From Bellilinea caldifistulae (GTDB lineage: Bacteria; Chloroflexota; Anaerolineae; Anaerolineales; Anaerolineaceae), in the NCBI RefSeq assembly GCF_001306055.1, contig NZ_LGHJ01000001.1, forward strand, positions 20,104 through 52,103: a DNA stretch of 32,000 bases, written 5' to 3'. A program made the translations under genes and the position numbers. The first letter of the stretch is position 1, and every line of letters starts with the position of its first letter. Below the pieces are notes generated by a model. That model was not told where the DNA came from. It searched no databases and saw only the letters and a program-made list of their open reading frames with translations. Below, piece by piece: positions 5,466 to 29,733 of this stretch.

Positions 5466-5476
5466 TAGGGGTCAAA

Positions 5477-5534: not shown

Positions 5535-5571
5535 GGCTTTGGTGAAAAAACGCAGAAGCAGAGAGGACGAT

Positions 5572-6426: not shown

Positions 6427-6878
6427 TGAAATCAAAATCAATCTCATTTAGGGTTTTCACGATTGTCTTTCTATTTCTGGTAATCCTGTCAGGTGAGGTT
6501 ATTGCAGCCGGCGGCAGCAAAACCGTTTCCGGCTCGATATCGGGTATCACCTATTTTGCAGAAAAAAGTGTGTACACCTATACTACCTCATGGACTGCGT
6601 CTGCCAAAAGTAGCGCAATTTCAAACATCTCTATCATTGGCTATACCTGGTGGACGGTTTATCGAATCTGTACCGATGATGTCTATGCTTATTACTCTCG
6701 TTCTGAGAATCAAAGTAACCGCAACAGTAACTACTTTGAAGACATAAAATGGATTGACCACTATCAATATTCCTGCAATCCCGGATATTTTGTTAAGAAG
6801 TCAGCCAGTCTCGGTAATCACCAGTTTACGTTGAATTCTACCCATCAGTACCCTTATGTGGAATATGTCTATCCTTAG
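6426..6878 (+). CDS. small secreted Tyr/Trp/Ser/Thr-rich protein with two Cys (cassette 1, small gene)
   Basis: 150 aa. Its ATG overlaps the upstream stop (TAATG) and GGAGG lies 5-6 nt upstream. The signal peptide is 'FRVFTIVFLFLVILSGEVIAA'. Paralog of 7857..8312. Confidence 0.8.
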   Translation: MKSKSISFRVFTIVFLFLVILSGEVIAAGGSKTVSGSISGITYFAEKSVYTYTTSWTASAKSSAISNISIIGYTWWTVYRICTDDVYAYYSRSENQSNRNSNYFEDIKWIDHYQYSCNPGYFVKKSASLGNHQFTLNSTHQYPYVEYVYP

Positions 6879-6911
6879 AAGAGAATAGGACCCTTTTTCG
6901 CTATGTTCAAA

Positions 6912-6969
6912 GTCATGGTGGGGGGCGTGACCGGCGGTACTTCCCCTTTGTTCTTCAATTTGCTATGAT
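6912..6969 (+). promoter_or_regulatory. second copy of dyad (GTCATG-N8-CGTGAC) plus TTCCCC-17-TATGAT promoter block
   Basis: Dyad at 6912..6931 with one arm mismatch. TTCCCC at 6941..6946 and TATGAT at 6964..6969. Confidence 0.4.
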
Positions 6970-7005
6970 GGCTTTGGTGAAAAACGCTGAAGCAGAGAGG
7001 ACGAT

Positions 7006-7860: not shown

Positions 7861-8312
7861 TCACAAACAGGCATCAAAAGCGGCTTATTCTATGGCTGGC
7901 TTTTATTTTGCTGGTCACCCAATTTGGTGAGAGTTCGGCTGGTGGCGGCAGCAAAACCGTTTCCGGCTCCATTTCGGGTATCACCTATTTTGCAGAAAAA
8001 AGTGTGTACACCTACACCAATACATGGACTGCGTCTGTCAAAAGTAGCACCGTCACAAATATCTCAATTATTGGCTACACCTGGTGGACGGTTTATCAGA
8101 TTTGCACAAACGATGTTTATTCTTACTATATTCGGTCAGAGAATAAAAATAACCGAAATAGCAGTTATTACGAGGACTCAAAATATGTTTATTACAAAGA
8201 TTACCCATGTCCAGGTGGTTCGTATATCAAAAAAACAGCCAGTCTCGGTAATCACCAGTTTACGTTGAATTCTACCCATCAGTACCCTTATGTGGAATAT
8301 GTCTATCCTTAG
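7857..8312 (+). CDS. small secreted Tyr/Trp/Ser/Thr-rich protein with two Cys (cassette 2, small gene)
   Basis: 151 aa with an ATGA start/stop overlap. Its signal peptide is unrelated to that of copy 1. The mature part is highly similar ('GGSKTVSGSISGITYFAEKSVYTYT...ASLGNHQFTLNSTHQYPYVEYVYP'). Confidence 0.85.
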   Translation: MITNRHQKRLILWLAFILLVTQFGESSAGGGSKTVSGSISGITYFAEKSVYTYTNTWTASVKSSTVTNISIIGYTWWTVYQICTNDVYSYYIRSENKNNRNSSYYEDSKYVYYKDYPCPGGSYIKKTASLGNHQFTLNSTHQYPYVEYVYP

Positions 8313-8340
8313 AAGAGAATAGGACCCTTTTTCGCTATGT

Positions 8341-8378
8341 TCAAAGTCATGGTGGGGAGCATGACCGGCGGCACTTCC
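8341..8378 (+). repeat. partial third copy of the unit start, including dyad GTCATG-N8-CATGAC at 8346..8365
   Basis: The sequence after the stop at 8312 repeats the inter-unit tail and the dyad. Homology ends after 'acttcc'. Confidence 0.8.
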
Positions 8379-8537
8379 TATAGCCGACCTTTTTTGCTAT
8401 AAAAAAATTAGTCTTTTTTATATCTCACCGTGGGTGGAAAATCGCCCCCTTGAGCAAGAGGATTTTTCCTTCATTTTTTGAATTTTTATTCACCCCCCGT
8501 TTGCGCTAAAAGACAAAATTGGAACTAAAGTTGGCGA

Positions 8538-8750
8538 ATGGATATAAAACTGAGATTGACCCAACGGGAGAAGCAAATACTGGAATTGTTGTGCGAGGGA
8601 AAGACCAATTCTCAAATTGCGAGAAACTTGCAAATTTCCCCAAAAACGGTCGAATCTAATCTGACCAGAGTATATCGAAAATTGGGCGTGAACAATCGCA
8701 CTGCAGCCGTTGCAGCATATTTTGTTGAATTAAATCGAGAGAAAAATTAA
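8538..8750 (+). CDS. stand-alone LuxR/GerE-type HTH transcriptional regulator
   Basis: 70-aa ORF consisting of the HTH only: 'LTQREKQILELLCEGKTNSQIARNLQISPKTVESNLTRVYRKLGV'. Confidence 0.8.
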   Translation: MDIKLRLTQREKQILELLCEGKTNSQIARNLQISPKTVESNLTRVYRKLGVNNRTAAVAAYFVELNREKN

Positions 8751-8836
8751 GGGAAATCCTTATATTGAAGTTTGTCTTGAGAGAGGGTATATTTAAATCG
8801 GCCGAATGGGTGCAAGAGAGAAAAGGGGAGGGAAGT

Positions 8837-8944
8837 AATGAATAAGAGAAACCTTTTTAATCTTGGAATGATTGGTTTGGTCTTTATGGTGGGCTTTTCC
8901 GTGGTGGGGGGAGCGCCGTTACCCGATGGGGGAATTCGTGATGA
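8837..8944 (+). other. 35-codon mini-ORF encoding a signal-peptide-like sequence, probably the detached 5' end of the CHAP gene
   Basis: A strong GGGGAGGG RBS lies 6-8 nt upstream of ATG 8837. Translation is 'MNKRNLFNLGMIGLVFMVGFSVVGGAPLPDGGIRE*'. It is out of frame with the downstream CHAP ORF. A third frame is open over 8871..9014. Confidence 0.4.
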
Positions 8945-9081
8945 AACCTGCCGGGAAGGGTTATCTGAATTTGTGACCGAAGCGAAGGATTGCTCAAATC
9001 GGCATTACGATTGATCAGCCGCAGCCGTTTGTTGACCCGCAGGCGATTATCCGGCGTTATACGGCTTGGTGTTCGCAAGGA

Positions 9082-9786
9082 TTGCTGGATTTGGATATCT
9101 GGCAAACGATGGGAATGACAATGGATGAGTGGATGAAATGGTATGAAGATACCCGTCAGCCGTTGGGAACGGTTGCGTCTCGCATCACTATCGGTGAAAT
9201 TGAAGCGGTTCGTTATGAAGAATCCACTCTTTGGACGACCCTGTGGAGCGGAGAAAAATATATCTATCGCTTGTGGTACACCCATAGGGGAGATCAATCG
9301 GGTGAGGAATTTTATAAAAGGGTCTTGAACTCCGTTGGTTTTTTGAATGAGGAGCCGATCAAGGGGGAAGATGCATCCCAATCGTTTCAAGGTTTATCGC
9401 TGGAAGGCTTTGCCACAGTCAATCCTCTTGTCACAACCTGTTGTGGATATACATCGCCGGGTAATCCCTTTGAGTGCTGTAACAACAAGGGAAATTGTGT
9501 CTGGTGGGTGTATTACAAATATGGTTATGTGCCGTTCCGAGGAGATGCAGGTAAGTGGTATGGACAAGTGCCCGATTACCCGGATTGGCGCAGGGGAAGA
9601 TATCCGAATAGAGGGATGAATATCGCGTGGTGGTCAGGATCTCCTGGTCACGTTGCCTTTATAGCGAACTATCCTGGAGGAGGGACAGTAACCATAACCG
9701 AGATGTTGATTTGTACATCCTGCGGAAGGACGCGTAATTTGAGTGTAACCGCTCCCGAAGGATACATGTGGACAATTTACAACTGA
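9082..9786 (+). CDS. CHAP-domain (NlpC/P60 superfamily) cysteine peptidase/amidase, 5' end apparently disrupted
   Basis: The C-terminal half shows a CHAP-like Cys...His pattern ('GNCVWWVYYKYGY ... SPGHVAFIA'). The reading frame is open from 8977, but the first start candidate is TTG 9082 with poor RBS context. There is no signal peptide in this frame. Confidence 0.65.
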   Translation: MLDLDIWQTMGMTMDEWMKWYEDTRQPLGTVASRITIGEIEAVRYEESTLWTTLWSGEKYIYRLWYTHRGDQSGEEFYKRVLNSVGFLNEEPIKGEDASQSFQGLSLEGFATVNPLVTTCCGYTSPGNPFECCNNKGNCVWWVYYKYGYVPFRGDAGKWYGQVPDYPDWRRGRYPNRGMNIAWWSGSPGHVAFIANYPGGGTVTITEMLICTSCGRTRNLSVTAPEGYMWTIYN

Positions 9787-9829
9787 GCAATTCGGTTTTA
9801 ATGATTTTCTCTTTTGGAGGTCAGGGCAG

Positions 9830-10573
9830 ATGATAAAAAGCATTGTTCGTCAGCTTCTTCTGATTGCAGGGTTGGTTTTTATAAGCAATTGCAGGGGAGA
9901 AATTGACAACTTCCCTTCTACTCCAATTGAGACTCGAAATTTGCCAACAATTACCCCCTCATCAGAGATAAAATCGACACCTCCCCAAATGGTTGATGAA
10001 ATTGAAACGGTCATTCCACTCAAACCCACCCGAATTCCAACCCCTACGGAAGAGGATGAAATATTTTTCCAAGAATATTGTGGCAAGGAATTTGTCTCTG
10101 CTGTGAAGCTCCTTCCTGAAAGGGAAATAAATTGGTTTCGATATAACCACTACCTTTACCCTTTCTCAATAGCATTCCCCTCGGATTGGAATCTCATAGA
10201 ATGTGATAATTCTATATACCTGTTTCCGGATAGTGAGCCTTCGATTCGTCTGGCAGTCCGTTTCAAATACTCGAATGAAAAGAAACATATCTTAAGAACC
10301 GGCGTGCCGGCGGGTGACGCGGTTCATGTTGGCACGGTGCAGTTCGTCGGTCAAACCATTCGCAAGACAATCATCCGCTACGAGGGCAAGGATAAAGTTG
10401 TCCTCTACGGCTACAAAGAGGATTTGCCCTATCAAATCCCGGTCGGTAATCTGATCTTTACCATCAGTCTGGATGATGTTGGTTCTCGTTATTATGAGGA
10501 TGTCGAGCTTTCGCCCGAAATTCAACAGCTGGCCGATGCCATTGTCGAAAGCATTCGGCTGACTTCGCCATAG
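9830..10573 (+). CDS. putative lipoprotein of unknown function
   Basis: 247-aa ORF with GGAGG about 9 nt upstream. Signal peptide with lipobox-like 'LVFISNC', followed by a Pro/Thr-rich linker. Confidence 0.7.
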   Translation: MIKSIVRQLLLIAGLVFISNCRGEIDNFPSTPIETRNLPTITPSSEIKSTPPQMVDEIETVIPLKPTRIPTPTEEDEIFFQEYCGKEFVSAVKLLPEREINWFRYNHYLYPFSIAFPSDWNLIECDNSIYLFPDSEPSIRLAVRFKYSNEKKHILRTGVPAGDAVHVGTVQFVGQTIRKTIIRYEGKDKVVLYGYKEDLPYQIPVGNLIFTISLDDVGSRYYEDVELSPEIQQLADAIVESIRLTSP

Positions 10574-10684
10574 GCATGAGCGATTCGATAAACTTCGTGC
10601 GCCGAATTGGCCATGAAGTGCTTTGGCTGTTTTGCCGCCCTCGTGTGTGGAAAAACATGTCGAACGTCGCTGGCACGCCCCGTT

Positions 10685-10861
10685 TTACTGTTTCATGACC
10701 AGTCCCGTTGCACTGGCAAATATCAACGCTCCCATCGCTACTGGCGGGGCGAGCATGCCAGGGCTGCAGTGTGTGCCTCCACGAAAAAGGTGAACAATCC
10801 TGTTTTTCAGAAGTGGGACGGAAACGGCGATGCAGACCAGAGGGGGAAAGTTGCTCGCCAT
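10685..10861 (-). pseudogene. truncated/chimeric remnant of the LuxR regulator 5' end
   Basis: 'MASNFPPLVCIAVSVPLLK' matches the start of the 4698..5387 product ('MANNFPPLVCIAVSVPLLKK'). It then diverges and stops after 58 codons. It carries the same upstream RBS and promoter sequence. Confidence 0.7.
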
Positions 10862-10939
10862 TCGATCCTTTAGAAAATGGTTCGTGGGAAAAAAGAACGC
10901 CGGTAAGTTTATGGTAAGGGAATCAATCCAATCTGTCAA
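10795..10939. repeat. right copy of the ~144-bp direct repeat
   Basis: Near-identical to 5322..5465. Confidence 0.9.
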
Positions 10940-11087
10940 AGCACCCTTGAACCTGCTTTGAAATGCGCTATTTCGCAAAACGGCGAAGATCAGCCGAGGC
11001 GACGGACTTCCCCGCTGTCGAAAAGAGAAACAAATCCCCTCGCCAAACCTTGACGTGGTTTACCGTCAACTCCCAAAGGGCAATTTC

Positions 11088-15056: not shown

Positions 15057-15084
15057 TTGATCCCCGCCCGGCGGAGAGGATCAA
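15057..15084. terminator. hairpin between convergent genes (TTGATCC ... GGATCAA)
   Basis: 7-bp arms at 15057..15063 and 15078..15084 with a GC-rich interior. It overlaps the radA stop codon and has no clear U-tract. Confidence 0.3.
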
Positions 15085-16490
15085 CCTTCCTCAAACAAGG
15101 CCAGTTGCAGAGCCTCGCGCAGTGAGCGTGCCTGTTGAATCTCGATGCCCTCCGGCAACGGCTCATTGCTGCGGGCACGGCGCGGGATAACCGCCCGGCG
15201 GAAGCCCAATTTGGCCGCCTCGCGCAGACGGGCATTCATCTGTCCAACCCAACGCAGTTCACCGGAAAGTCCCACCTCACCGATCAAGACCGCATCGGCA
15301 CGTACCGGCACATCCCGCATTGAGGAAGCAATCGCCGCAGCCAGCGCCAGATCGGCTGCCGGTTCGTTGATTCGTAATCCTCCCACCACATTGACAAACA
15401 CATCCTGATCGGCCAGCCGCAGCCCAAGCCGGCGGGTCAACACCGCGGTGATCAGCAGCAGGCGGTTGAGGTCAACCCCGTTGGGCGTACGGCGCGGGTT
15501 GCCGAGGTTGGAATAACTGGTCAACCCCTGAATTTCTACCAGCAGCGGGCGGGTACCTTCCATCGTGACCGCAATTGCCGAGCCGGGCGCGTTGACCATC
15601 CGCTCGGCTAAAAACAATTCGGAGGGATTGGGCACCTCCACCATGCCGCGCTCGCGCATCTCAAACACCCCCACCTCCGAAGTGGCCCCAAAGCGGTTCT
15701 TGACCGAGCGCAGCAGCCGGAAGGATTGATAACGGTCGCCTTCCAGATAGAGAACCGTGTCCACAATATGTTCCAGCACGCGCGGCCCGGCAATGATGCC
15801 CTCTTTGGTCACATGCCCGATGACGAACACCGCCATCCCGCTGGATTTGGCCAGTTCGCGCAGGCGTGAGGCGCATTCGCGCACCTGCCCCACCGAACCG
15901 GCGCTGCTGCCCAGTTCTGGCAGATAAACCGTTTGAATCGAGTCAATCACCAGCAACAGCGGCGCGACCGTCCGGATATGCTCAAAAATGATCTCCAGAT
16001 TGGTCTCGGTGACCAGAAAGAGGTTGTCCGGCAAGGGCTGATCGGCGTGGTTGTTTTGTAGCAGGCGCACGGCGCGCATTTTGATCTGCCGCTCGGATTC
16101 TTCGCCGGAAACATACAGCACCGCCGCGCCCTGCGGGGCAAAGCGGGCCGCCAGTTCCAGCGTCATTTGCAGGGTGAGGGTGGACTTACCAATACCCGGG
16201 TCACCGCCGACCAGCACAATCGAGCCGGGCACGATGCCGCCGCCCAGCACGCGGGCAAACTCGGCCATGCCGAGCGGCAGGCGTTCCTCGGCATCGCCGG
16301 AAATTTCCGCCAAACGGCGCGGGTGCGACTGACTGCTCAGCCCGCGGGCCGGCTTGGATTTGGCGGCTGGTGGGGCAATCACCTCCTCCACCATCGTCCC
16401 GTAACTGCCACACGAGGGGCAGCGTCCCAGCTGGCGCGGTGAGGTGCGCCCGCAGTTCTGGCAAACGTACTGAATTAGCGTTTTCGGCAC
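15081..16490 (-). CDS. radA: DNA repair protein RadA/Sms
   Basis: 469 aa with a GTG start. It has an N-terminal zinc finger 'CQNCG...CPSCGS', Walker A 'GDPGIGKST', the 'KNRFG' motif and a Lon-protease-like C-terminal domain. Confidence 0.95.
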   Translation of the reverse strand: MPKTLIQYVCQNCGRTSPRQLGRCPSCGSYGTMVEEVIAPPAAKSKPARGLSSQSHPRRLAEISGDAEERLPLGMAEFARVLGGGIVPGSIVLVGGDPGIGKSTLTLQMTLELAARFAPQGAAVLYVSGEESERQIKMRAVRLLQNNHADQPLPDNLFLVTETNLEIIFEHIRTVAPLLLVIDSIQTVYLPELGSSAGSVGQVRECASRLRELAKSSGMAVFVIGHVTKEGIIAGPRVLEHIVDTVLYLEGDRYQSFRLLRSVKNRFGATSEVGVFEMRERGMVEVPNPSELFLAERMVNAPGSAIAVTMEGTRPLLVEIQGLTSYSNLGNPRRTPNGVDLNRLLLITAVLTRRLGLRLADQDVFVNVVGGLRINEPAADLALAAAIASSMRDVPVRADAVLIGEVGLSGELRWVGQMNARLREAAKLGFRRAVIPRRARSNEPLPEGIEIQQARSLREALQLALFEEG

Positions 16491-16511: not shown

Positions 16512-17342
16512 ATGAACGATATTCCCCCCCTCCAATCCCGTCTGAATCAAATCATCCAGGCGGACTGCCTGAAAGAACTGGCCGATTTTCCGCCAGAATC
16601 GGTGGATTTGAGTGTATTTTCCCCGCCTTATGATGATATTCGGGATTATAAGAAAAACTGGCGCTTTGATTTTGAAACATTGGGAAAAGAACTGCTACGG
16701 GTGACTAAAGAGGGCGGTGTAGCGGTAGTCGTGATTGGAGATGCAACTCGCAACTTTGCCAAAACGCTCACTTCGTTTCGACTGGCGGTTAATTGGGTGG
16801 ATCAAATTGGATGGAAGCTGTTTGAAACCGTGATCTACAAACGCGACGGCAACCCCGGCGCCTGGTGGAACACCCGTTTTCGGGTGGATCACGAATACGT
16901 CTTCATGTTTTTCAAGGGACAAAAGCCGAAAACTTTCCACAAAGAACATCTGATGGTGCCCAGCAAACACGCCGGCAAAATCTATACCGGCACCGACCGA
17001 CTGACCAATGGCGGTTTCAAGGTCATTCAACCCAAAGCCGTCAATCCAATGAAATGCCGCGGCACAGTCTGGCAATACGCCACCAGTAATACCGAAGGCA
17101 ACCGCCTGAAACTCCAGCACCCGGCCACTTTTCCCGATAGGCTGGCCGAGGATTTGATTCTGTGTTTTTCTGAGCCCGGTGATGTAGTGCTTGACCCGAT
17201 GTGTGGCAGCGGTACGACGTGCGTCATGGCAAGAAAAAATTATCGCAATTTCATCGGCATTGAAATCAGTGAAGAATACTGTCAGATTGCCCGGAAAAGA
17301 CTGGAAGTGGAAGTTTATCCCCAACAGGAGCGATTGTTTTAG
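16512..17342 (+). CDS. beta-class DNA methyltransferase (N4-cytosine or N6-adenine; SPPY motif IV)
   Basis: 276 aa. Motif IV 'VFSPPYDD' precedes motif I 'VLDPMCGSGTT'. The C-terminal 'FIGIEISEEYCQIARKRL' is typical of the N4/N6 MTase family. Confidence 0.88.
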   Translation: MNDIPPLQSRLNQIIQADCLKELADFPPESVDLSVFSPPYDDIRDYKKNWRFDFETLGKELLRVTKEGGVAVVVIGDATRNFAKTLTSFRLAVNWVDQIGWKLFETVIYKRDGNPGAWWNTRFRVDHEYVFMFFKGQKPKTFHKEHLMVPSKHAGKIYTGTDRLTNGGFKVIQPKAVNPMKCRGTVWQYATSNTEGNRLKLQHPATFPDRLAEDLILCFSEPGDVVLDPMCGSGTTCVMARKNYRNFIGIEISEEYCQIARKRLEVEVYPQQERLF

Positions 17343-17344
17343 AA

Positions 17345-18022
17345 ATGCTGCTACAACAAGACGTCCTTGAAGATATTGAGATTGCCTTACAACGGTTAAG
17401 TAATCTTGCTACTTTCTGGGATGGGAAAAAAAGTATCTTGGAACTCAAAACAGCCAACTATAACTGGCGGCAAATGGAATGGTGGTCGTTTTATTTTGAG
17501 TATTTGTGTTTTCAAAAATTACGAGAGCATTTTCAAATACCCGGCGATCGTTTTGGAAGGGTAAAAACGGCTTCTTTTGACCTCAAAAGAAACATTAATT
17601 GGGATCTTAAAGCCAAAGCAATAAAATCCGATGACCATCGCTCAATTCTCAATGATATGTCAGCCATACAGCGATCAATTGAACAATACGGTGCTCATGG
17701 ATTAATCATTGGATTATGCGATGTGGAATATAACGATAATAATCGCACCTTCCAAACGTGGCATGAGCAGCTTAAGGGTGGTAAATCGAAATACGAGATA
17801 GAACGCTTACAACGCACCAGCATTTCGCGGTACCGCAAAACTCGGGCTGACTTATTGGAAATTCTTTTCCTCGTCATAAACCGAGAAAACGAGCAGTTTT
17901 TGGAAATTTATCATCAGGGCAGAAACAGCAACGGTCAGCCGCGTCCGCCAAAATACATGCTTAATTACGACGAAATAGACCGATTTTTAGTCAAAGAATT
18001 ACGATATTCCGATTCTGAATGA
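17345..18022 (+). CDS. putative type II restriction endonuclease partnered with the 16512..17342 methyltransferase
   Basis: 225-aa A+T-rich ORF starting 2 nt after the MTase stop. A possible nuclease signature 'FDL...WDLKAK' is present. The assignment rests mainly on context. Confidence 0.55.
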   Translation: MLLQQDVLEDIEIALQRLSNLATFWDGKKSILELKTANYNWRQMEWWSFYFEYLCFQKLREHFQIPGDRFGRVKTASFDLKRNINWDLKAKAIKSDDHRSILNDMSAIQRSIEQYGAHGLIIGLCDVEYNDNNRTFQTWHEQLKGGKSKYEIERLQRTSISRYRKTRADLLEILFLVINRENEQFLEIYHQGRNSNGQPRPPKYMLNYDEIDRFLVKELRYSDSE

Positions 18023-18855
18023 GCAGACGAGAAAACTTCCTCCGTCACTTGCTTTTCGATGTGCGTAACCGGCTGGATTATCCCCTGCGTCAGTTGTTCC
18101 GCTGGCGACGGGCGGGTTTCCGCATCTCCCCCCGGCCGGAGGTTGACCCGTTTGCGCCCCTGCCGGCCGAGGAACGCCCGCGTGCCGTGGCGCTGGCCGG
18201 GCGGCTGGTGCGGGATTATCACCTGGAGGAATTCGCCGCCCAAACCACGCCGGTCAACTACCGCGAAAACCTGTTTTACCTGCACCTGCTGGAAAGCGCT
18301 CTGGAAGCCAGCCAGATCAGCCTGCCGGAGGAAATCCGCGCCGCCGACATCGGCCCATCCCACTGGTTTTATGTGCAGGCGCTGGCGGCTCTGCTGCGCT
18401 GGTGGCGGACGCCCCACCCCCGCCAGATTGACCTGCAAGGCTACGAAATTGACGCCTACCGCGTCTACGCCGACCTGCACTCGCGTTACGATCACGCCAT
18501 CGGCCATATCCGCGACCTGCCGGGCGTGACTTACATCCCGCGCGGATTCAGCGCCCAGCCGCTCGCTTTTCACCTGATTTTCATGCTGTTTCCCTTCGTG
18601 TTCAGTCAGGACCACCTTGAATGGGGACTGCCCGGCAGTCTGTTCCAGCCGCGCGCCCTGCTGCAAGCCGCCTGGCAAAGTCTGCAGCCCGGCGGCCTGC
18701 TGATCATTGTCAATCAGGGAGAAGAAGAACACGCCGCCCAGCGCGCCCTGCTTGAAGCCGAGGGCATCCCGATTCGCGCCGCATTTCGTCATGACCCGCT
18801 GCTGTTCCGCTACTCGCTCGACCGCTTTGTGCTGACTGCCTGCCGCGATGGATGA
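18019..18855 (+). CDS. hypothetical protein, possibly a class I SAM-dependent methyltransferase fold
   Basis: 278 aa. It has a weak motif I-like 'RAADIGPSHW' and 'LQPGGLLIIVNQGEE'. It overlaps the next gene by 8 nt. Coding is preferred over the antisense ORF 17965..18792. Confidence 0.5.
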   Translation: MSRRENFLRHLLFDVRNRLDYPLRQLFRWRRAGFRISPRPEVDPFAPLPAEERPRAVALAGRLVRDYHLEEFAAQTTPVNYRENLFYLHLLESALEASQISLPEEIRAADIGPSHWFYVQALAALLRWWRTPHPRQIDLQGYEIDAYRVYADLHSRYDHAIGHIRDLPGVTYIPRGFSAQPLAFHLIFMLFPFVFSQDHLEWGLPGSLFQPRALLQAAWQSLQPGGLLIIVNQGEEEHAAQRALLEAEGIPIRAAFRHDPLLFRYSLDRFVLTACRDG

Positions 18856-20049: not shown

Positions 20050-20877
20050 TCAACGCCCGGCCTGACCAACCGCCGCGCGGCTGAATTGTTTTGTCCCAAA
20101 CCCCAGAATAATCCCAACCGCAAAAACGGTAGTAATCCCCACCACAAAGGGATACGAAGAAACGAAAACGCCCAGTTCCAGCAGCACAAACGCGGCGGTG
20201 TTGGACATGGCGTGAAAAACGGTGACAAAGAATAAACTGGCCCCGGTCTGGCGGTAAAGCCAGATGTAAATGACCGTCAACGAAAGGCTGAAAAGGACTT
20301 CCCCGTACCACGGCAGGGAAGCCATCGGCGATTGGGGGTTGAGCATGAGCGGGAGATGCCACACGCTCCACAACAGGCCCATGACCAGCGCGGTTTGCAA
20401 GTCAGAGAATTTCTCTTGAAGTCGCGGCAGGGCAAATCCACGCCAGCCGATTTCTTCCCAAACGTTGGAGATTACCATGGTCACAAAAACCGGAATCAGG
20501 CTCAACCACCCAAGCGAACTCAAAGCGGGCAGGGGTAGGCCGGCAATTCCCATCCCCGCCAGCGCCAGAGCAACCGCAACAAACCAGAAACCTGCCACAA
20601 AGAAATACCACCCCGCTGAAGCCCGCACCCTGAATAAAGCCGAAAACAAAGCCGGAATTTGATGCTTCTGTCGGAAAAATAAGAGTGTAACCACGGCTGC
20701 CAGGGTTGGGCCGCATCCGCCCAACAGACTGAACAAGGGGCTGTCAAAGGGAAAGAGCCCGCGTGCGTGCAAAGCCTGCGGTAACCACCCCAGCCACGAA
20801 AACACAAAAGCCAGCAGGTAAAACACCACAACAGAGTGGGTTCTCCGGCTATCTTCGGTTTCTGCCTGTGCTTCCAT
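20050..20877 (-). CDS. CPBP-family intramembrane glutamic endopeptidase (CAAX protease / Abi-like)
   Basis: Motifs 'WEEIGWRGFALPRL', 'WSVWHLP' and 'FHAMSN' in a polytopic protein. The start is set at the Met preceded by GGTGGA. The ORF is open to 20955. Confidence 0.85.
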   Translation of the reverse strand: MEAQAETEDSRRTHSVVVFYLLAFVFSWLGWLPQALHARGLFPFDSPLFSLLGGCGPTLAAVVTLLFFRQKHQIPALFSALFRVRASAGWYFFVAGFWFVAVALALAGMGIAGLPLPALSSLGWLSLIPVFVTMVISNVWEEIGWRGFALPRLQEKFSDLQTALVMGLLWSVWHLPLMLNPQSPMASLPWYGEVLFSLSLTVIYIWLYRQTGASLFFVTVFHAMSNTAAFVLLELGVFVSSYPFVVGITTVFAVGIILGFGTKQFSRAAVGQAGR

Positions 20878-21096
20878 CTTCCACCCCGCCGCCAGCCACA
20901 CCCGCATGTGGCGCTCGCTGTTGGTTATGAAAATTATACACGAAGGCGTGTCCATGGAATTTAGAAAACACGGCGTTCAAGAGAATCTATGGGTTGCAAA
21001 AAACTGGCTCAATGCCGCTGCGCCGCAAAGAAGATTGTTTTTCTCCTCCCGCCCTTCCTCCGCGACGGCCTTGCGGGAGACCGCCACGCCGCCTGC

Positions 21097-22815
21097 TTAC
21101 CCAAACAGCTCGCGGATGGCGTCATCGGCGCTGCGACCGGGTGGCGACGCGCCGCGCAGCTCCTCGAAAAAGCGCTGGTCGTAGCGGCGTGAACGTACCA
21201 CAATCGGCAGGCTGACCCCCCAGCCGAGCAGCAGGGCTTCCTCCTTGGGCTGCAGGCGTGCCAGCATCCCGCGCAGGGCGTCCCGCCCGGCCAGACCGGA
21301 AAGCACCGCGGCAATATCGGCTTCATCGCCCAGCCAGGCGCTCACCCGCGTGCCCAGCTGCGACATGACCTCATCGTAAATCTGCGAGGGGCGCTGATCC
21401 ACAATCAGCAGGGTGACGTAGTACTTGCGCATCTCGCGCGCGATGGTGGCAAAGGCCGTCTGGGCGGCCATCTCGCGGTTGAGCAGTTTGTGGGCTTCTT
21501 CGATCACCACCACCAGCGGGCGCGGTTCGGGGTTTTTCTGCGGGTGGGAGCGGTAGGCGTTGGTGCGCTTTTCCCACTCATCGCGGATGCGGCGGGTGAT
21601 CAGGTTGGTCACCAGCAGGTAATCCAGGTCGGTTTCGTGGTCGCCAAACGAGAGGATGACATGCTTGCCGCTGGCCAGCAGGTTGATGATCTCTGCCAGA
21701 CTGTCCTGCGGCGGGTTGGGGACGATGTAGGGTTTGTTGAACAGGCGTCCCAGTTTCTGGTGCAGGCCTTCGGCGGCCATCACATTCACACCCGCCTGAT
21801 TTGCCCAAAAGGCGACGCTGTCGGTTGCCGGCACTTTTTTGCCGGTTATCGGGTCTTCCTCCATTGCGCCATTGCGCATCTTCTTGAATTCGCTGAACCA
21901 GGTCCGCCCAAAATCGTGCCACAACGCCTCCAGCGTGGCGGGGGTGGTCTCGCGCAGGTTGAGCTCGCGGGTCAGCATCTCGATGTCTTCCGGCAGGATG
22001 TCGCTTTCCGCCAGGGTCAGGTTAAAATCGGGCGACTGGCCGCGGATGGAAGCGCCCGCCCCCAGCCCGACCACCCGCACGCGCGGGTTAAATTTGCTTT
22101 TCAGGCCGGGGATGACCTCTTTGGTGTCCGAGGCGATGTCGTCGTAGGCGTATTCGTTGTGCATGTCAAAAACCAGCGTGGCGGCTTTGTTGTACTCAAT
22201 CAGCCCGGCCAGCAGCAGGCGGGTGAGGAATGACTTGCCGGTGCCGGTTGCTCCAAAAATGCCCGATGAGCGCTGCACAAACTTTTCCAGATCGAGCGGG
22301 ATGGGCAGGTTCTGCTCGCGGGTGTAGCCGATCACAAAATTGCGCTGACTGGGTTCGCCGAAGATATTGGCCACATCTTCGGCGCGTGCGCTGCGCACCA
22401 GCGCATGATGAGCCGGCACGGTCTTGACCGGCTGGGGCTGCAGTCCGCTGTCATCGGGGTGCTGGCTGCGCCACTGCTCATATTCTGGCGAAGCCGGGTC
22501 GGGACCGACTTCCTGCATCAACGCCGGCAGCACCTGCAGATTGGTGAACAGGGTCTGACCGTGGAGCAGGCACGCCACCTCCGGCGGCAAGCGGTTTTCG
22601 CTTTGTTCGTCGGCAAAACGCGGATTGGTGCTGCCCAGCTGCAGGTCGGTTACCGTGCCGTAAAAACGCCAGTCGCCGCTTTCGATCACCACAAACGAGC
22701 CCTCTTTGACCTCCTGCGGCGGGACGGTCAGGCGCACACTGAGCGAATCTTTCAGGCTGCCGCCGACCACATAGCCCAGCGATTTTTCGGACGTGTTTTC
22801 GGGGTTGTTGGTCAT
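21097..22815 (-). CDS. herA: HerA-like (DUF87) FtsK/HerA-superfamily ATPase/translocase
   Basis: 572 aa. It has an N-terminal barrel-like segment, Walker A 'GIFGATGTGKSF' and Walker B 'LVVVIEEAHKLL'. It is the last gene of a three-gene operon with a NurA-like nuclease. Confidence 0.85.
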   Translation of the reverse strand: MTNNPENTSEKSLGYVVGGSLKDSLSVRLTVPPQEVKEGSFVVIESGDWRFYGTVTDLQLGSTNPRFADEQSENRLPPEVACLLHGQTLFTNLQVLPALMQEVGPDPASPEYEQWRSQHPDDSGLQPQPVKTVPAHHALVRSARAEDVANIFGEPSQRNFVIGYTREQNLPIPLDLEKFVQRSSGIFGATGTGKSFLTRLLLAGLIEYNKAATLVFDMHNEYAYDDIASDTKEVIPGLKSKFNPRVRVVGLGAGASIRGQSPDFNLTLAESDILPEDIEMLTRELNLRETTPATLEALWHDFGRTWFSEFKKMRNGAMEEDPITGKKVPATDSVAFWANQAGVNVMAAEGLHQKLGRLFNKPYIVPNPPQDSLAEIINLLASGKHVILSFGDHETDLDYLLVTNLITRRIRDEWEKRTNAYRSHPQKNPEPRPLVVVIEEAHKLLNREMAAQTAFATIAREMRKYYVTLLIVDQRPSQIYDEVMSQLGTRVSAWLGDEADIAAVLSGLAGRDALRGMLARLQPKEEALLLGWGVSLPIVVRSRRYDQRFFEELRGASPPGRSADDAIRELFG

Positions 22816-22836
22816 TGCATTTCCTCCCGTTCCAAA

Positions 22837-23448
22837 TCAAGACAGGTTGATATCGCCAATTGCGCTCAAAACGCTCATCAGGCGGTCGTAATCATCCCGC
22901 AGCAGGGTGACCAGCTCGCGGGTAACCGCCTCCACCCAATCCGGCCTGCCGTGAGTCAGATGAATCTGCCCGGCCTGCTGGATGTGAGCCGCCAGCAGTT
23001 CGGCCTGCGGCAAATCATCCCGGCGCAGGATGTGGCGCAGGTAGCCAAACCGCCCGTTGCCGGTGAAGGCCACCACCTCCTGGGGCGTGCAGGTGAAAAT
23101 TTCATCCAGACTGAGCGGCGGGCGCGGCGGCAGCAGGTGGCTGATGACACCATCCTGTTGGTAACCGATGAAAATCACGCCAATCTCTACCGGTACATTG
23201 CGGTTATTGCGGTTATCCAGCAGCACATCCGGCGGAACGTTGTCGCTGGTGATCAACTGGCGGATCAAGCCGTCGTCCTCGATTTGAATGTTGTGAATCA
23301 GGCCAAAAATCTGCGTCCCCTCGGCCAGCGGGATGCGCACCATGCCGCCAAAAGCCGGCAGGTTTAACTCGCTGGCGCGGCAGCCGATCACACAATCGCT
23401 GGTGGTTGAACGCAGCAGCCGCCCGATGTGAAGTGAAGAATTGGTCAT
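22837..23448 (-). CDS. hypothetical 203-aa protein whose N-terminal half resembles a HAS-barrel without an ATPase domain
   Basis: It sits 15 nt after the NurA stop and 21 nt before the HerA start. 'IGRLLRSTTSDCVIGCRAS...FGGMVRIPLAEGTQIFGLIHNIQIED' follows the same pattern as the HerA N-terminus 'LGYVVGGSLKDSLSVRLTV...EGSFVVIESGDWRFYGTVTDLQL'. The C-terminal half looks helical. Confidence 0.6.
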   Translation of the reverse strand: MTNSSLHIGRLLRSTTSDCVIGCRASELNLPAFGGMVRIPLAEGTQIFGLIHNIQIEDDGLIRQLITSDNVPPDVLLDNRNNRNVPVEIGVIFIGYQQDGVISHLLPPRPPLSLDEIFTCTPQEVVAFTGNGRFGYLRHILRRDDLPQAELLAAHIQQAGQIHLTHGRPDWVEAVTRELVTLLRDDYDRLMSVLSAIGDINLS

Positions 23449-23463
23449 TTTTCCACCTCCCGC

Positions 23464-24633
23464 CTAAAAATTGTCTTTATGATACTGCTTGGGACTTTTC
23501 TCCCCCACCGCTAAACCCATGGCGCGCATGGCGCGGGCGATCATGGTTTCGATCTGTTCTTTCTCCAACCGCGTGATCAGGGCAATTTCATGGGCGCGGT
23601 GCAGTGCGTAGGGGTATGGTTTGCTGCCCATCTGCCGGCACTGCTGCAATAAAACGGCGTGGAGCGCATCTACCAGGTCCGTTTGTTCAGCAACACCGCG
23701 GGGAATTTCCACCCGCGCCATCCACGGCCGGGCAGGATGGTTGCCGACATTCAGATAAAAGAAACAGGGTTGCAGAGCCGGGTCATAAACCGCAAAACGC
23801 TCCGCCATGGACGATTGAATGGCAAATACCGCGCTGCGCTGACCGGGGGCCAGCAGCCCGGCAAAGATCACCCGGTCCAGCACTCCGCCCAACGGCCGGC
23901 GGCGGGCGGTTTCCTGCACTGGCTGGCGCGGTTCGGCGGTCAGCTCCAGCAGGCGCACCACCAGGTCGCTGCCCGGTTTGTCCACGTAACCGGCGCTAAC
24001 TGCTCCCTGCCGGCCGGTCTTTTGCAGGACGGTCAGGTACTCACTCAACAAATGATCAAATTGGGAATTGTTGCGCGGTTCACGGTACAGTTCCAGCGGC
24101 CCGTCGGTCAAGGTGATCACCGGCTGGGAGGGTTCGCGGGCGGCGCGTTCGGCCAGCAGGCGGCGCTCGTTCAAGTCGCGGCGCAGCGCCACCACTTCTT
24201 CGGTCAGCGGCGCATCTGGATTACGCAGGTCATCCAGCAGGTACAGTTGAGTTTCGGCATCTTCGCTGGGGGTGAGATGGGTGGCGGGCAAAATCCGAAA
24301 GATGCCGGTGTTGATGACCGCAAATTCCACCGCATCATGCCGGCTGGGGTTGACCTGCGAACCGTCCGCCGCCAGCAACGGCGGTAATTCCCGGATCACC
24401 GGCGCATCGCGGACGGTGTCCAGCCGTTCAGTCAACGGCACGGCACAGCGCAGAGAAAGGTCCGCCTGCCGGGCTTCATTCACCCGGTCGCGCAGGTCAT
24501 CCAGGTCAGCGGCGTACTGGCGGAGCAGCCTGACGGCCTGCTCCAGCCGATCCTGATAAACCTGCTGATTCTGACTGGCTTGCTGACATTTGGCTTGAAT
24601 TTGTCCTTGAATTTGTAGGTAGTTGACCGGCAT
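23464..24633 (-). CDS. nurA: NurA-domain 5'-3' nuclease
   Basis: 389 aa. The NurA-type catalytic 'AADGSQ' motif follows an N-terminal coiled-coil-like region. It is encoded directly upstream of HerA, as in archaeal and bacterial NurA-HerA pairs. Confidence 0.7.
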   Translation of the reverse strand: MPVNYLQIQGQIQAKCQQASQNQQVYQDRLEQAVRLLRQYAADLDDLRDRVNEARQADLSLRCAVPLTERLDTVRDAPVIRELPPLLAADGSQVNPSRHDAVEFAVINTGIFRILPATHLTPSEDAETQLYLLDDLRNPDAPLTEEVVALRRDLNERRLLAERAAREPSQPVITLTDGPLELYREPRNNSQFDHLLSEYLTVLQKTGRQGAVSAGYVDKPGSDLVVRLLELTAEPRQPVQETARRRPLGGVLDRVIFAGLLAPGQRSAVFAIQSSMAERFAVYDPALQPCFFYLNVGNHPARPWMARVEIPRGVAEQTDLVDALHAVLLQQCRQMGSKPYPYALHRAHEIALITRLEKEQIETMIARAMRAMGLAVGEKSPKQYHKDNF

Positions 24634-26694: not shown

Positions 26695-27537
26695 TCACAC
26701 CGATGCAACTTCCGCACGTTTCCGCCAGAAGATCCAGATCAGCAGCAAGCCCATCAACGCCAAACCAATTCCAAATTCATCAATCAAATAGGGTGATAGT
26801 GAAGATTGACCCGTCAGGGGTGTGAACACCCCCTGGATAAAGATGTTATGACTGGCGTGGAGCAAAACGGCCGGCCAGAGGCTGCCCGATTTCAACCTCA
26901 ACCACGCCATCGTAAAACTGATTCCCAACACCATCAGGGTAAAGCAAACCAGTCCAAACCACACAGGTGTGCCGGGGTTGTGATAATCGGCAAAGAGAAT
27001 AAGAGGAAAATGCCACACAGCCCAAATAATTCCGCTGATGACCGATGCTGAGGTGAAAGAGCCCGCTTTAGCCAATTCAGGAACGAATAGACCACGCCAC
27101 CCAATTTCCTCCCCCAAGGCAGCAAAGGTAGAAAACAGCATTCCGAAAGTTGCCATGTTCAAAACATGACTGACCACAAAATTCAGCGGGCTGATTGTTT
27201 CTCCTGTCTGTTGAGATACCTGCAACGCCAGTTGGTCTATATTCAGAGGCGCAGATCCACTCAACCAGACCGAACCGTATACTACCAGTCCGTAGATAAC
27301 GGGTAAGAAATATGCCAGCAGCAGGTAGCGAAATGGCCTTAATTTCCATCCCAAACCGCGTAATTTCTTTTCAAAGATCAACTGGGTGAGTATGCCGGCA
27401 ATCCCGGGGCACCACATCAAACCGATTGTGTAGTTGCCAACCGAACCAGTGGACACGATTCTGGCATAAAAAAACGAGCTTAAGGCAAAGGTCAGTAACA
27501 GAAAAACGATAATCTTTGGTTTTGTTGTGGTTTTCAT
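26695..27537 (-). CDS. CPBP-family intramembrane glutamic endopeptidase (CAAX protease / Abi-like)
   Basis: Motifs 'LGEEIGWRGLFVPEL', 'WAVWHFP' and 'LHASHN'. The start is set at the Met preceded by AAAGGA. The ORF is open to 27603. It is A+T-richer than the copy at 20050. Confidence 0.85.
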   Translation of the reverse strand: MKTTTKPKIIVFLLLTFALSSFFYARIVSTGSVGNYTIGLMWCPGIAGILTQLIFEKKLRGLGWKLRPFRYLLLAYFLPVIYGLVVYGSVWLSGSAPLNIDQLALQVSQQTGETISPLNFVVSHVLNMATFGMLFSTFAALGEEIGWRGLFVPELAKAGSFTSASVISGIIWAVWHFPLILFADYHNPGTPVWFGLVCFTLMVLGISFTMAWLRLKSGSLWPAVLLHASHNIFIQGVFTPLTGQSSLSPYLIDEFGIGLALMGLLLIWIFWRKRAEVASV

Positions 27538-27828
27538 TGTGAGTATCCTTTTTTCCTGTAGTTGAATTGATGCGTCTTGCGAAGGCGCCCAAACCATATT
27601 CATCTACGTGGAAGAGAATTATCAGGTTTCGAACGGGAAGTAAAACTCTTTGTGAAACTCTCAAAATCTTTACACCGATCTACCCGTACAGCCACACCGC
27701 TGCCGCAATCATCACCCGCCCGATCAGGTGGATGTTTGGATGAGTCATCAATCAAAATGGGCGGTAAGAGGTTTTCTCTAAAAGTTTTTTGCTCTTATTG
27801 AGTATAATCAAAGGGAAGGCATTTAGAT

Positions 27829-29013
27829 ATGTCAGAATATAAATCAATCCACTTTTCATTAAACTTTTTATGTGATAACCAGATCGTGGAGCGGGTTAAT
27901 CAATATCTGGCACAGCAACCCGAACCATTGCCGTATATCGAGCCAAATGCCGATGGCTATGTCTTCTACTTCCATACGCTTGACTTGCAATTACTGAAAA
28001 GACATCTTCAAGCCTTGACGGCTCGTGATCTTTTTTCTGCCGACCCGACCCATGTTTCGGATTCAGAAAAAGTGGCAAAAGTCCTCCAAACCGTTTACGA
28101 CAACGTAAGCAAAATTGGTAGTTATGGCATCAAAGCAGGAAAGCGTCAATACGTTGGCTTTAATACTGAACGGAAGGTAAGGAATAGAAAAACAAAAGAG
28201 GAAAATAGATCTCAGTATTACTATGCCCGCAGTAACAACTTCTCAAAAGAGAATAATTCCTTACCAGAAGAGTTAACCAATACCATCCTTTGTGGTGACA
28301 GCCGGGATGTCTTAAAAACCGTCCCTGATAATTCCATAGACCTGATTTTTACATCACCCCCCTATAACTTTGGATTGGAATATGATCAACAAGACGATGC
28401 CCACAAGTGGGAACAGTATTTTGACAAGTTGTTTGCCATTTTTGACGAATGTATAAGAGTATTGAAGTATGGCGGTCGAATAGCTGTCAACATTCAGCCC
28501 TTGTTTTCTGACTATATTCCCTCTCATCACATGATTAGTAACTTCTTTCTGTCCAGAAAGATGATCTGGAAAGGTGAAATACTCTGGGAAAAAAATAACT
28601 ACAATTGCAAATACACTGCTTGGGGGTCGTGGAAAAGCCCTAGTAATCCCTACCTCAAATACACGTGGGAGTTTATCGAAATTTTTGCCAAAGGGACACT
28701 GAAAAAAGCAGGGAAACCTGAACATGTAGATATCTCTGCGGAAGAGTTCAAAGAATGGGTGGTGGCAAAATGGAACATTGCCCCCGAACGGAAAATGAAA
28801 GAATTTGGACATCCTGCCATGTTTCCAGAAAAGTTAGCAGAGCGGGTTATCAAATTATTTTCTTTTGTGGGGGATGTGGTGTTAGATCCCTTTAACGGGG
28901 TTGGTACGACAACTGCTGTAGCCAAAAAACTGGGACGGAAGTTTATCGGAATCGATATTTCCCAAGAATACTGCGAGATAGCAAAAAAGAGGATTAACCT
29001 TGATCTATTTTAG
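27829..29013 (+). CDS. beta-class DNA methyltransferase (SPPY motif IV) with a ~150-aa N-terminal extension
   Basis: 394 aa. Motif IV is 'IFTSPPYNF' and motif I is 'VLDPFNGVGTT'. 'FIGIDISQEYCEIAKKRI' is present. A TATAAT lies at 27803..27808 upstream. The gene is A+T-rich. Confidence 0.88.
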   Translation: MSEYKSIHFSLNFLCDNQIVERVNQYLAQQPEPLPYIEPNADGYVFYFHTLDLQLLKRHLQALTARDLFSADPTHVSDSEKVAKVLQTVYDNVSKIGSYGIKAGKRQYVGFNTERKVRNRKTKEENRSQYYYARSNNFSKENNSLPEELTNTILCGDSRDVLKTVPDNSIDLIFTSPPYNFGLEYDQQDDAHKWEQYFDKLFAIFDECIRVLKYGGRIAVNIQPLFSDYIPSHHMISNFFLSRKMIWKGEILWEKNNYNCKYTAWGSWKSPSNPYLKYTWEFIEIFAKGTLKKAGKPEHVDISAEEFKEWVVAKWNIAPERKMKEFGHPAMFPEKLAERVIKLFSFVGDVVLDPFNGVGTTTAVAKKLGRKFIGIDISQEYCEIAKKRINLDLF

Positions 29014-29022
29014 GAGGATGGA

Positions 29023-29733
29023 ATGCCAAAAAGTATAGCTGAAATTAGAAATGCTTATAACCTTTTAGTAGGCGGTATTGATGAGAGAGCACATACAGAA
29101 AACGATGAAGGTAACAGATCTTATGGTGGAATTATAAGATCAGCAAAAGGAATTCTTGTAGAAAGTATTGCTAAAAATTTAGTTGAAATTGCATGGGATG
29201 AATTAGAAGGAAATCCTAATAGATTAAGTTTTTTCAAAGAAACGATACGAATCCCCTTGAAAATCGAATATTTGAAGCGAGTGCGACCTGTTGAAGTGGC
29301 AGACTATATTAAGGCACATATTGAACAATATTTTTATGGTCTTAGGACAGATGTCCACGTGAATGTGGACGGTAGATTTATCATGGGTATCGAATGTAAG
29401 GCTTACACCGAAAATGCTATGCTAAAAAGAATTCTGGTGGATTTCTCTTTGCTTAAGCAAGTTGTACCAAACTTGAGATGCGTATTGTTCCAATTAGAAA
29501 GCCAGCTAACCGGTGATTACTGTGAGCCATTGAAACCCGTGATTTATGGCAGCCCTTCGACCCATACGCTTCTTTCTTATTTCGATGTGGACTTGAATAT
29601 CATCACCTTGCTGGAAGGCGAAAGAAAGGTTGACGAGCCAATTCATAAGCAGCCTTTTTTCAAAGAGATGACCGAGCCAGCATTAAGAAAAGCTGTTAAC
29701 ACGTTGAAAGACCTTCTCCGTGAGTTTGCATAA
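29023..29733 (+). CDS. putative type II restriction endonuclease (PD-ExK-like 'D...GIECK')
   Basis: 236-aa A+T-rich ORF. A perfect AGGAGG lies 5 nt upstream of the ATG and 9 nt after the MTase stop. The candidate catalytic signature is 'TDVHVNVDGRFIMGIECKAY'. Confidence 0.6.
   Translation: MPKSIAEIRNAYNLLVGGIDERAHTENDEGNRSYGGIIRSAKGILVESIAKNLVEIAWDELEGNPNRLSFFKETIRIPLKIEYLKRVRPVEVADYIKAHIEQYFYGLRTDVHVNVDGRFIMGIECKAYTENAMLKRILVDFSLLKQVVPNLRCVLFQLESQLTGDYCEPLKPVIYGSPSTHTLLSYFDVDLNIITLLEGERKVDEPIHKQPFFKEMTEPALRKAVNTLKDLLREFA

Follow-up and report, generated by a model that had tools for sequence, protein, structure and literature searches.

A conserved stand-alone HAS-barrel protein encoded between NurA and HerA in Chloroflexota: a candidate third subunit of a NurA-HerA end-resection machine

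The described NurA-HerA systems are composed of two subunits, assembled as HerA6:NurA2, and perform ATP-driven 5'-3' resection. To our knowledge, work on NurA-HerA has to date dealt with a two-protein machine from archaea and Deinococcus. The HAS barrel (PF09378) is the N-terminal domain of HerA and the crown domain of F1-type ATPases. The complexes taken as references for end resection were NurA-HerA of Deinococcus radiodurans (PMC9960219) and archaeal HerA-NurA of Sulfolobus (4d2i) and Thermococcus (9x1l/9x1m). In Deinococcus and archaea, the HAS-barrel crown of HerA is the docking site for NurA, and in Deinococcus the basic face of NurA is bound by an acidic HAS patch (PMC9960219). SIR2-HerA (8wiv, 8wof) and DUF4297-HerA (8zir, 9c1m) served as references for anti-phage HerA systems.

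The window analyzed here (32,000 nucleotides from Bellilinea caldifistulae; assembly GCF_001306055.1, contig NZ_LGHJ01000001.1, positions 20,104 to 52,103) contains three tightly packed minus-strand genes, nurA, mid, and herA, which are separated by gaps of exactly 15 and 21 nt in the ORF listing, as the first-pass annotation had reported (Table 1). The name Mid is a label coined here for the 203-aa middle protein and its family. The common strand, the short gaps, and the lack of terminator-like sites in both the nurA-mid and mid-herA gaps indicate that nurA and herA are co-encoded in one operon. In both spacers, a Shine-Dalgarno-like GGGAGG was found just upstream of the ATG of the next gene. 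Rfam and tRNA scans of the window gave no matches.

Table 1. Features of the nurA-mid-herA locus and its surroundings in the window (positions refer to the window; residues refer to the respective protein).
Feature	Residues	Position (nt)	Strand	Description	Basis
nurA		23464..24633	minus	NurA-family nuclease, 389 aa	Pfam PF09376
NurA N-terminal extension	1-85		minus	helical-looking	outside Pfam domain
NurA domain	86-351	23581-24378	minus		Pfam PF09376
NurA DGS motif	90-92	24358..24366	minus	putative metal-binding aspartate motif	located in sequence
nurA-mid spacer		23449..23463	minus	15 nt, Shine-Dalgarno-like GGGAGGTG	read from sequence
mid		22837..23448	minus	predicted stand-alone HAS-barrel protein, 203 aa	fold search of AF2 model
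Mid N-terminal beta-barrel	5-119	23092..23436	minus		DSSP on model, hhalign, weak PF09378 matches
Mid acidic helical insert, strands 4-5	57-88	23185-23280	minus	motifs DDxLVRQL, DxRxNRxxPxE	conserved
Mid C-terminal helical bundle	122-198	22855..23085	minus		AF2 helices
mid-herA spacer		22816..22836	minus	21 nt, Shine-Dalgarno-like GGGAGGA	read from sequence
herA		21097..22815	minus	HerA/DUF87 hexameric translocase-type ATPase, 572 aa	Pfam DUF87 + HAS-barrel
HerA own HAS barrel	13-71 and onward	22603-22779	minus		Pfam
HerA DUF87 core	161-410		minus		Pfam
HerA Walker A	188-195	22231-22254	minus	GATGTGKS	motif located
HerA Walker B	435-442	21490-21513	minus	VVVIEEAH	motif located
Probable restriction-modification cassette		16512-18022		~3 kb from trio, unrelated genes between	
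Clear restriction-modification cassette		27829-29733		~3 kb from trio, unrelated genes between	

NurA matched Pfam PF09376 with an E-value of 1.1e-17 and 64.8 bits (cut-off 21), and the positions D90, G91, S92, Q93, R152, D153, E156, D177, H348, and E349, which include the putative acidic catalytic residues, were conserved at ≥97% in the window sequence and 76 relatives; the earlier reading of a NurA-type nuclease with a DGS motif, now seen to be nearly invariant, was thus upheld. NurA had no match in PADLOC and none by sequence in the PDB. HerA matched Pfam DUF87 (E 2.8e-28, 99.9 bits, above the cut-off) and, in its N-terminal part, Pfam HAS-barrel (E 9.2e-7, 29.3 bits, cut-off 25.2). This architecture, an N-terminal HAS barrel with a DUF87/RecA-like core carrying both Walker motifs, agrees with the previous assignment of a HerA/DUF87 ATPase, and the Walker residues were invariant in 32 relatives. 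The locus resembles the Deinococcus and archaeal systems in co-encoding a NurA nuclease with a HAS-barrel and RecA-like HerA ATPase, the catalytic and Walker motifs of which are intact. Unlike these systems, it has a third conserved gene, for a predicted free-standing HAS barrel, between nurA and herA, and its NurA and HerA are very distant in sequence from those of the solved complexes.

The sequence of Mid lacks a P-loop and an ATPase domain, as was noted previously, and had no match in Pfam, NCBIfam, or PADLOC and only chance-level matches in the PDB. With respect to PF09378, the window Mid fell below the Pfam threshold, with no match even at E ≤ 10; among 39 diverse members of its family, 13 matched PF09378 weakly (best E 6.9e-5), and this was the sole recurrent Pfam family. 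The AF2 model of Mid (pLDDT 85.1, pTM 0.80) had a beta-barrel in its N-terminal part and, in its C-terminal part, a bundle of helices at residues 122-129, 137-141, 148-165, 171-182, and 187-198 (pLDDT > 90). In a Foldseek search of the PDB with this model, all 50 matches listed were chains of HerA or TdpA, which are HerA-family ATPases (best E 2.6e-5, probability 1.00; 42 of the 50 listed at E ≤ 1e-3, ~130 aligned columns), and the HerA chains of SIR2-HerA and DUF4297-HerA were the best among those listed. Nothing below E 0.2 was found in the BFVD viral fold library. Profile-profile alignment of Mid with the N-terminus of the adjacent HerA using hhalign covered HerA residues 35-102 with P ~1e-4 (0.025 for the reversed control); the sequence similarity is weak, with hhalign probabilities of 10-56%. 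Both proteins carry a helical insert, located between strands 4 and 5. The fold search, the weak profile-profile match, and the family matches to PF09378 bear out the earlier suggestion that the N-terminal half of the middle protein mirrors the HerA barrel, and the predicted fold of Mid is that of a HAS barrel. Unlike the PF09378 barrels of HerA, however, this barrel is stand-alone, and the domain fused to it, in the place of the ATPase domain of HerA, is a helical bundle that had no sequence match to any solved structure. The N-terminal barrel region of HerA was alignable in all four divergent HerA groups, and HerA retains its own barrel in all groups, with the completeness of this barrel judged from Pfam and alignment. 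Mid is therefore an extra barrel copy rather than a split-off piece.

Clustering of the Mid family gave 4971 clusters at 90% and 574 at 50% identity, and the family was present in at least 572 species genomes; every member with a name belonged to Chloroflexota. Since Mid resembles the N-terminal domain of HerA only, it could be regarded as a functionless, decaying remnant of a duplicated herA. The data on selection and conservation all but rule this explanation out: the dN/dS of Mid was ~0.13-0.17, indicating purifying selection, a length of ~200 aa was kept by full-length members across the 574 clusters, 61 columns were invariant among 26 Anaerolineae members, and mid has its own ribosome-binding site. 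Several longer proteins with Mid segments (P0166, P0147, P0247, and others), considered as possible NurA-Mid fusions, look like frameshifted or chimeric metagenome calls and were left out of the evidence. No description of a gene between nurA and herA, or of a stand-alone HAS barrel, was found in the literature; in line with the first-pass annotation, which had placed a barrel protein in this position outside the described architectures, Mid is a conserved component with no description in the libraries and papers covered by the search.

The co-occurrence survey proposed earlier revealed that Mid travels with NurA and usually with HerA. Of 80 genome loci, 79 had nurA immediately upstream of mid. 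The 15-nt spacer of the window gave way in 65 of 86 loci to an overlap, mostly of 4 nt, between the stop codon of nurA and the start codon of mid. HerA followed within 60 nt downstream of Mid in 48 of 73 loci, and the operon arrangement as a whole was conserved in most of the 80 loci. The trio was present across Anaerolineae and other Chloroflexota, with HerA 64-71% identical across the class; L087-L089, which represent the most divergent branches, also had all three genes. The idea of a fourth gene conserved in the Mid-HerA interval was rejected, the inserts varying by locus (GxxExxY-type PD-(D/E)XK, pentapeptide repeat, Eco57I-like methylase, and GT87). About 10 of the 80 loci encoded NurA and Mid but lacked a herA gene within 6 kb, and Mid may thus be able to serve NurA without HerA. 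On this ground, NurA and Mid could form a two-protein nuclease unit working without HerA, for example on another substrate, with the proximity of HerA being a habit of gene order. We consider this improbable: HerA directly follows Mid in the majority of loci, the most divergent among them, locus L054 keeps Mid and HerA without an adjacent NurA, Mid copies a HerA domain, and HerA may be encoded elsewhere in the genomes concerned. In five loci, for example L070, a Rad50/SbcC-like protein with a zinc hook was encoded directly 3' of HerA, and in L085 and L086 a metallophosphoesterase gene immediately preceded NurA; no Rad50 or Mre11 gene adjoins the trio in the window. The linkage of Rad50-like genes to the operon in some relatives may parallel the archaeal herA-mre11-rad50-nurA operon.

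One rival reading, which takes up the earlier defense framing, is an anti-phage or anti-plasmid system of the HerA type, similar to SIR2-HerA and DUF4297-HerA, with NurA as the effector nuclease and Mid in sensing or regulation. The trio shares with these systems a HerA ATPase of the same superfamily and a partner protein expected to assemble on the HAS-barrel face. The window HerA matched PADLOC HerA models (best E 2.7e-33), and its best sequence match in the PDB was the ATPase of SIR2-HerA, with matches mainly in the C-terminal ATPase part. However, against NF042943 and NF042944, the anti-phage HerA equivalogs, it scored 73 bits, far below the cut-offs of 800 and 850; its scores against anti-phage and repair HerA models were about equal, and all were far below the family cut-offs. 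The trio also differs from SIR2-HerA and DUF4297-HerA in its partner, which is NurA with a barrel-only protein: no SIR2 or DUF4297 effector adjoins it, the only Pfam match beside HerA being NurA, and neither NurA nor Mid matched PADLOC.

The trio does lie between two restriction-modification cassettes, and two CPBP/Rce1-like genes are also present in the window, as the first-pass annotation had stated, but the cassettes are not immediate neighbors (Table 1). These flanking genes adjoin the trio only in the closest relatives, and one cassette is exchanged for other genes in a near-identical strain. Although TA, BREX-type, or transposon genes lie near a few related loci, the 131 immediate neighbors at more than 80 loci, surveyed for the defense enrichment proposed earlier, matched defense models only sporadically, in a handful of cases; they were mostly housekeeping genes, and Rad50/SbcC recurred. 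Five neighbors matched the defense model 'LmuB/mad3'; since Pfam likewise gave five Rad50-like proteins, these matches are read as the same five proteins. Genes of mobile or defense type were observed near some loci (HepT/MNT in L084, PglZ in L087, and Tn7-like genes in L088). No relatives of Mid were found on plasmids, phages, or viral contigs, including IMG/VR. Unlike the anti-phage systems, the trio is chromosomal and vertically kept rather than island-borne. Given its class-wide retention and the purifying selection on Mid, the defense reading is not supported and is rated as unlikely; the trio is an ordinary chromosomal operon and does not have the appearance of a mobile anti-phage system. 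The outcome comes close to the vertically kept repair locus that the first-pass annotation had itself set against its anti-phage framing, but the flanks of the trio are not syntenic.

[quoted passage not shown] NurA would be its nuclease, which HerA, as the ring ATPase, would supply with DNA. Mid would be a paralogue of the N-terminal HAS-barrel domain of HerA in which the ATPase domain has disappeared and a helical bundle has been acquired; it would be produced together with NurA through translational coupling, would present a HerA-like barrel surface to NurA, and could act as an adaptor or assembly factor coupling NurA to the HerA ring or extend the crown. Because the NurA dimer docks on a crown of six HAS barrels in the solved complexes, Mid most likely acts, by analogy, at the interface of NurA and the HerA crown. 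The analysis itself shows the fold, family, linkage, selection, and distribution of Mid; how the subunits touch one another, in what numbers they assemble, and their part in resection are what we infer.

The evidence tying Mid closer to NurA than to HerA, namely the near-constant adjacency, the codon overlaps, and the HerA-less pairs, also speaks for a different role, in which Mid is not a bridge but a decoy or safety lock. As a negative regulator, it would hold the NurA dimer inactive and pre-assembled, or cap the HerA channel, and NurA would be released only once HerA engages a DNA end. In its favor, the insert in the Mid barrel carries acidic charge (net -4; mean of the family -3.1), as does the corresponding segment of HerA, and NurA is bound by an acidic HAS patch in Deinococcus. 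However, an adaptor would account for these observations just as readily, and the putative equivalence of the acidic patches of Mid and HerA is one of position alone; we regard the lock as rather unlikely. A further arrangement, tentative and less likely than not, is that Mid builds its own HAS-barrel ring or cap, which either lies between the dimer of NurA and the hexamer of HerA or restrains NurA until a DNA end has been engaged by HerA. If so, this would be a three-tier resection machine in which a detachable copy of the crown of the motor controls when the nuclease reaches DNA. We know of no such arrangement described for any HerA/FtsK-type motor.

On the favored reading of a three-subunit end-resection machine, an environmentally abundant bacterial class keeps a third subunit that would be a free copy of the docking surface of the nuclease. 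A large protein family of thousands of sequences, currently without annotation, is also defined. Should Mid prove to be an adaptor or a gate, it would offer a natural handle on how NurA is coupled to the HerA motor and restrained, and it would indicate that a crown domain of a ring ATPase can give rise to a separate subunit with a regulatory role.

Bellilinea caldifistulae belongs to the class Anaerolineae of the Chloroflexota. The nurA, mid and herA genes are separated by spacers of 15 nt (nurA-mid) and 21 nt (mid-herA), in exact agreement with the packed minus-strand arrangement described in the first-pass annotation. Both spacers contain a GGGAGG-type ribosome-binding site, and no terminator-like site was found in either of them. 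The assignments of the outer genes were also upheld: the first gene encodes a NurA nuclease (PF09376, E 1.1e-17) whose DGS motif lies at residues 90-92, and the third a HerA ATPase (DUF87, E 2.8e-28) with Walker A GATGTGKS at residues 188-195, Walker B VVVIEEAH at 435-442, and a HAS-barrel match at 13-71 exceeding the Pfam cut-off. Long antisense ORFs (242-320 aa) lie over the trio on the plus strand (21490-22233, 22405-23367, and 23659-24387); such ORFs are common in high-GC DNA, and these were treated as artefacts.

Positions of the trio genes, the flanking protease genes, and the structural parts of Mid
Feature	Position	Strand	Source
nurA, 389 aa	23464-24633	minus	ORF listing
mid, 203 aa	22837-23448	minus	ORF listing
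herA, 572 aa	21097-22815	minus	ORF listing
CPBP/Rce1-like intramembrane protease, flanking the region	20050-20955
CPBP/Rce1-like intramembrane protease, flanking the region	26695-27603
Mid beta-barrel	residues 5-119		AlphaFold2 model
Mid helical insert, strands 4-5	residues about 57-88		AlphaFold2 model
Mid C-terminal helical bundle	residues 122-198		AlphaFold2 model

The middle protein, Mid, gave zero matches to Pfam, NCBIfam, and PADLOC. Its AlphaFold2 model, built from 26 homologues, was confident (pLDDT 85.1, pTM 0.80). Among the 50 Foldseek matches listed against the PDB, all were HerA-family chains, including SIR2-HerA, DUF4297-HerA, Sulfolobus HerA, Thermococcus HerA-NurA, and TdpA; E-values went down to 2.6e-5, 42 of the matches listed had E<=1e-3, and about 130 columns were aligned. 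The HAS-barrel fold proposed from the sequence was thereby recovered. In profile alignments, residues 30-115 of Mid matched residues 35-102 of the neighbouring HerA (P about 1e-4; reversed control P 0.025), with a probability of 10-56% that varied with the alignments used. When 39 diverse Mid members were scanned singly, 13 matched the Pfam HAS-barrel (best E 6.9e-5), and no other Pfam family recurred. The sequence evidence for kinship of the Mid and HerA barrels is weaker than the fold evidence and points in the same direction. Since an N-terminal barrel region is retained by HerA itself in each of the four divergent groups compared, Mid is an additional barrel and not one split off from HerA.

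At 90% identity the Mid family formed 4971 clusters, and at 50% it formed 574; a full-length member is about 200 aa long. Mid is carried by at least 572 species genomes (one genome per species scanned), the best 80 of which all belong to Anaerolineae or other Chloroflexota. With two more divergent subgroups as queries, the searches returned Chloroflexota names exclusively (Anaerolineae, Caldilineae, or 'Chloroflexi bacterium'). The dN/dS values of the window trio against three relatives were 0.13-0.17 for Mid, 0.18-0.29 for NurA, and 0.10-0.16 for HerA; by these values, Mid is a working protein conserved better than NurA.

The co-occurrence of the three genes was borne out across relatives. 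NurA lies immediately upstream of Mid in 79 of 80 genome loci, the sole exception (L054) having Mid-HerA behind prmA, and in 65 of 86 loci the NurA stop overlaps the Mid start, usually by 4 nt. HerA begins within 60 nt downstream of Mid in 48 of 73 loci; 20 loci have unrelated genes between the two (a GxxExxY-type nuclease, pentapeptide-repeat protein, methylase, or glycosyltransferase), and HerA was not found within 6 kb in about 10 of 80. Even the most divergent branches (L087, L088, and L089) have the complete trio. NurA-Mid is the tightest pair, because both its adjacency and its codon overlap exceed the linkage to HerA. Stop/start codon overlap is a usual sign of translational coupling, and the production of Mid is predicted to be coupled to that of NurA. 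The pentapeptide-repeat insert, whose fold is a known DNA mimic, is a 193-aa protein of one Chloroflexota subgroup (L085, 6597-7178; L086, 6620-7198).

The six HAS barrels of HerA form a ring that is the docking site of the NurA dimer; in Deinococcus the contact involves an acidic patch on the HAS barrels and basic motifs of NurA (PMC9960219). The strand 4-5 insert of Mid is modelled with lower confidence, yet it is strongly conserved, being the most conserved segment of the protein. It is acidic, with a net charge of -4 (family mean -3.1), as is the matching HerA segment. As a free HAS barrel, Mid could bind NurA and/or the HerA crown. The main alternative is that Mid serves as a lock or decoy, restraining NurA until HerA engages DNA. 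An adaptor or assembly factor that would couple NurA to HerA is the best inference.

The defence setting put forward in the first-pass annotation is present in the window, but it is not conserved beyond the closest relatives. A clear Type II R-M cassette (27829-29733), located where GC is low (about 41%), encodes a 394-aa N6/N4 methylase and a REase of 236 aa (PADLOC REase_II, E 4.5e-79). In a near-identical strain (L002/L003) its place is taken by a TetR regulator and two small genes, which marks the cassette as recently exchanged. On the other side, where GC drops to 43% at 17-18 kb, a 276-aa methylase is followed by two ORFs of 225 and 278 aa that matched no Pfam family, the former with a weak REase_II match (E 2e-4); the stretch 16512-18855 is probably a second R-M cassette (16512-18022) plus an extra uncharacterised gene. 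About 3 kb separates either cassette from the trio. Neither CPBP/Rce1-like protease matched a PADLOC model, and among the related loci compared the two were found beside the trio only in the three that share the Mid sequence of the window (L001-L003); no gene flanking the trio in the window adjoins it past the two closest relatives. Further away, at about 5000-11000, lies a low-GC island (41-52%) that may be left over from a mobile element or prophage; with it go a run of ORFs that matched no Pfam family, a LuxR-type regulator (4698-5465), and a protein with a CHAP domain (9082-9786).

Among 131 immediate neighbours in 80+ loci, the recurrent families were SIMPL (11), DUF212 (6), PDDEXK_3 (5), and GNAT (5), together with five Rad50/SbcC-like proteins, four of them with a zinc hook. 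PADLOC matches among these neighbours were sporadic; the five 'LmuB/mad3' matches are read as the five Rad50-like proteins from their equal number. In the Brevefilum locus L070, the genes run NurA-Mid-HerA-Rad50 and are spaced or overlap by 3-12 nt, the Rad50-like ATPase (8343-10925, about 860 aa, zinc hook) beginning 3 nt past herA. A Rad50/SbcC-like protein also follows herA in four Brevefilum-like genomes (L047, L064, L073, and L078), and this four-gene operon is reminiscent of the archaeal herA-mre11-rad50-nurA operon. Immediately before nurA and in the same orientation, L085 (3441-4796) and L086 (3408-4775) encode a calcineurin-like metallophosphoesterase (452-456 aa) that could be an Mre11/SbcD-like partner, its match being limited to the generic Metallophos family. 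In the window, RadA/Sms (zinc ribbon, RecA-like, and Lon_C domains; 15081-16490, minus strand) lies 4.6 kb from herA, a proximity that is probably coincidental, being shared with the closest relative only (L004).

No relatives of Mid or NurA were found on 72,556 plasmids, and none of Mid in 50,697 phage records or, by pattern scan, in IMG/VR; HerA had only remote matches on plasmids. HerA scored 83 bits (repair) and 73 bits (anti-phage) against the NCBIfam equivalogs, far below both cut-offs (800-970), and its distance from HerAs of solved structure is about the same for those of defence as for those of repair. The non-conserved R-M/CPBP flanks, the Rad50-type neighbours, the lack of plasmid, phage, and viral relatives, and the HerA class data favour a vertically kept repair module. 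A defence system retains a small probability, as a few loci lie near TA, BREX-type, or Tn7-like genes and the window trio lies between a clear and a probable R-M cassette.

The first-pass annotation regarded a stand-alone barrel between NurA and HerA as an undescribed architecture, and the literature search agreed: it turned up no account of a stand-alone HAS barrel or of any gene lying between nurA and herA. No curated family in Pfam, NCBIfam, or PADLOC covers Mid. The kind of system is not new; Mid is a putative third, lineage-wide subunit of the known NurA-HerA system. Specialists in DNA repair or ring ATPases would find it surprising, and the finding is easily testable and gives an annotation to a large orphan family.
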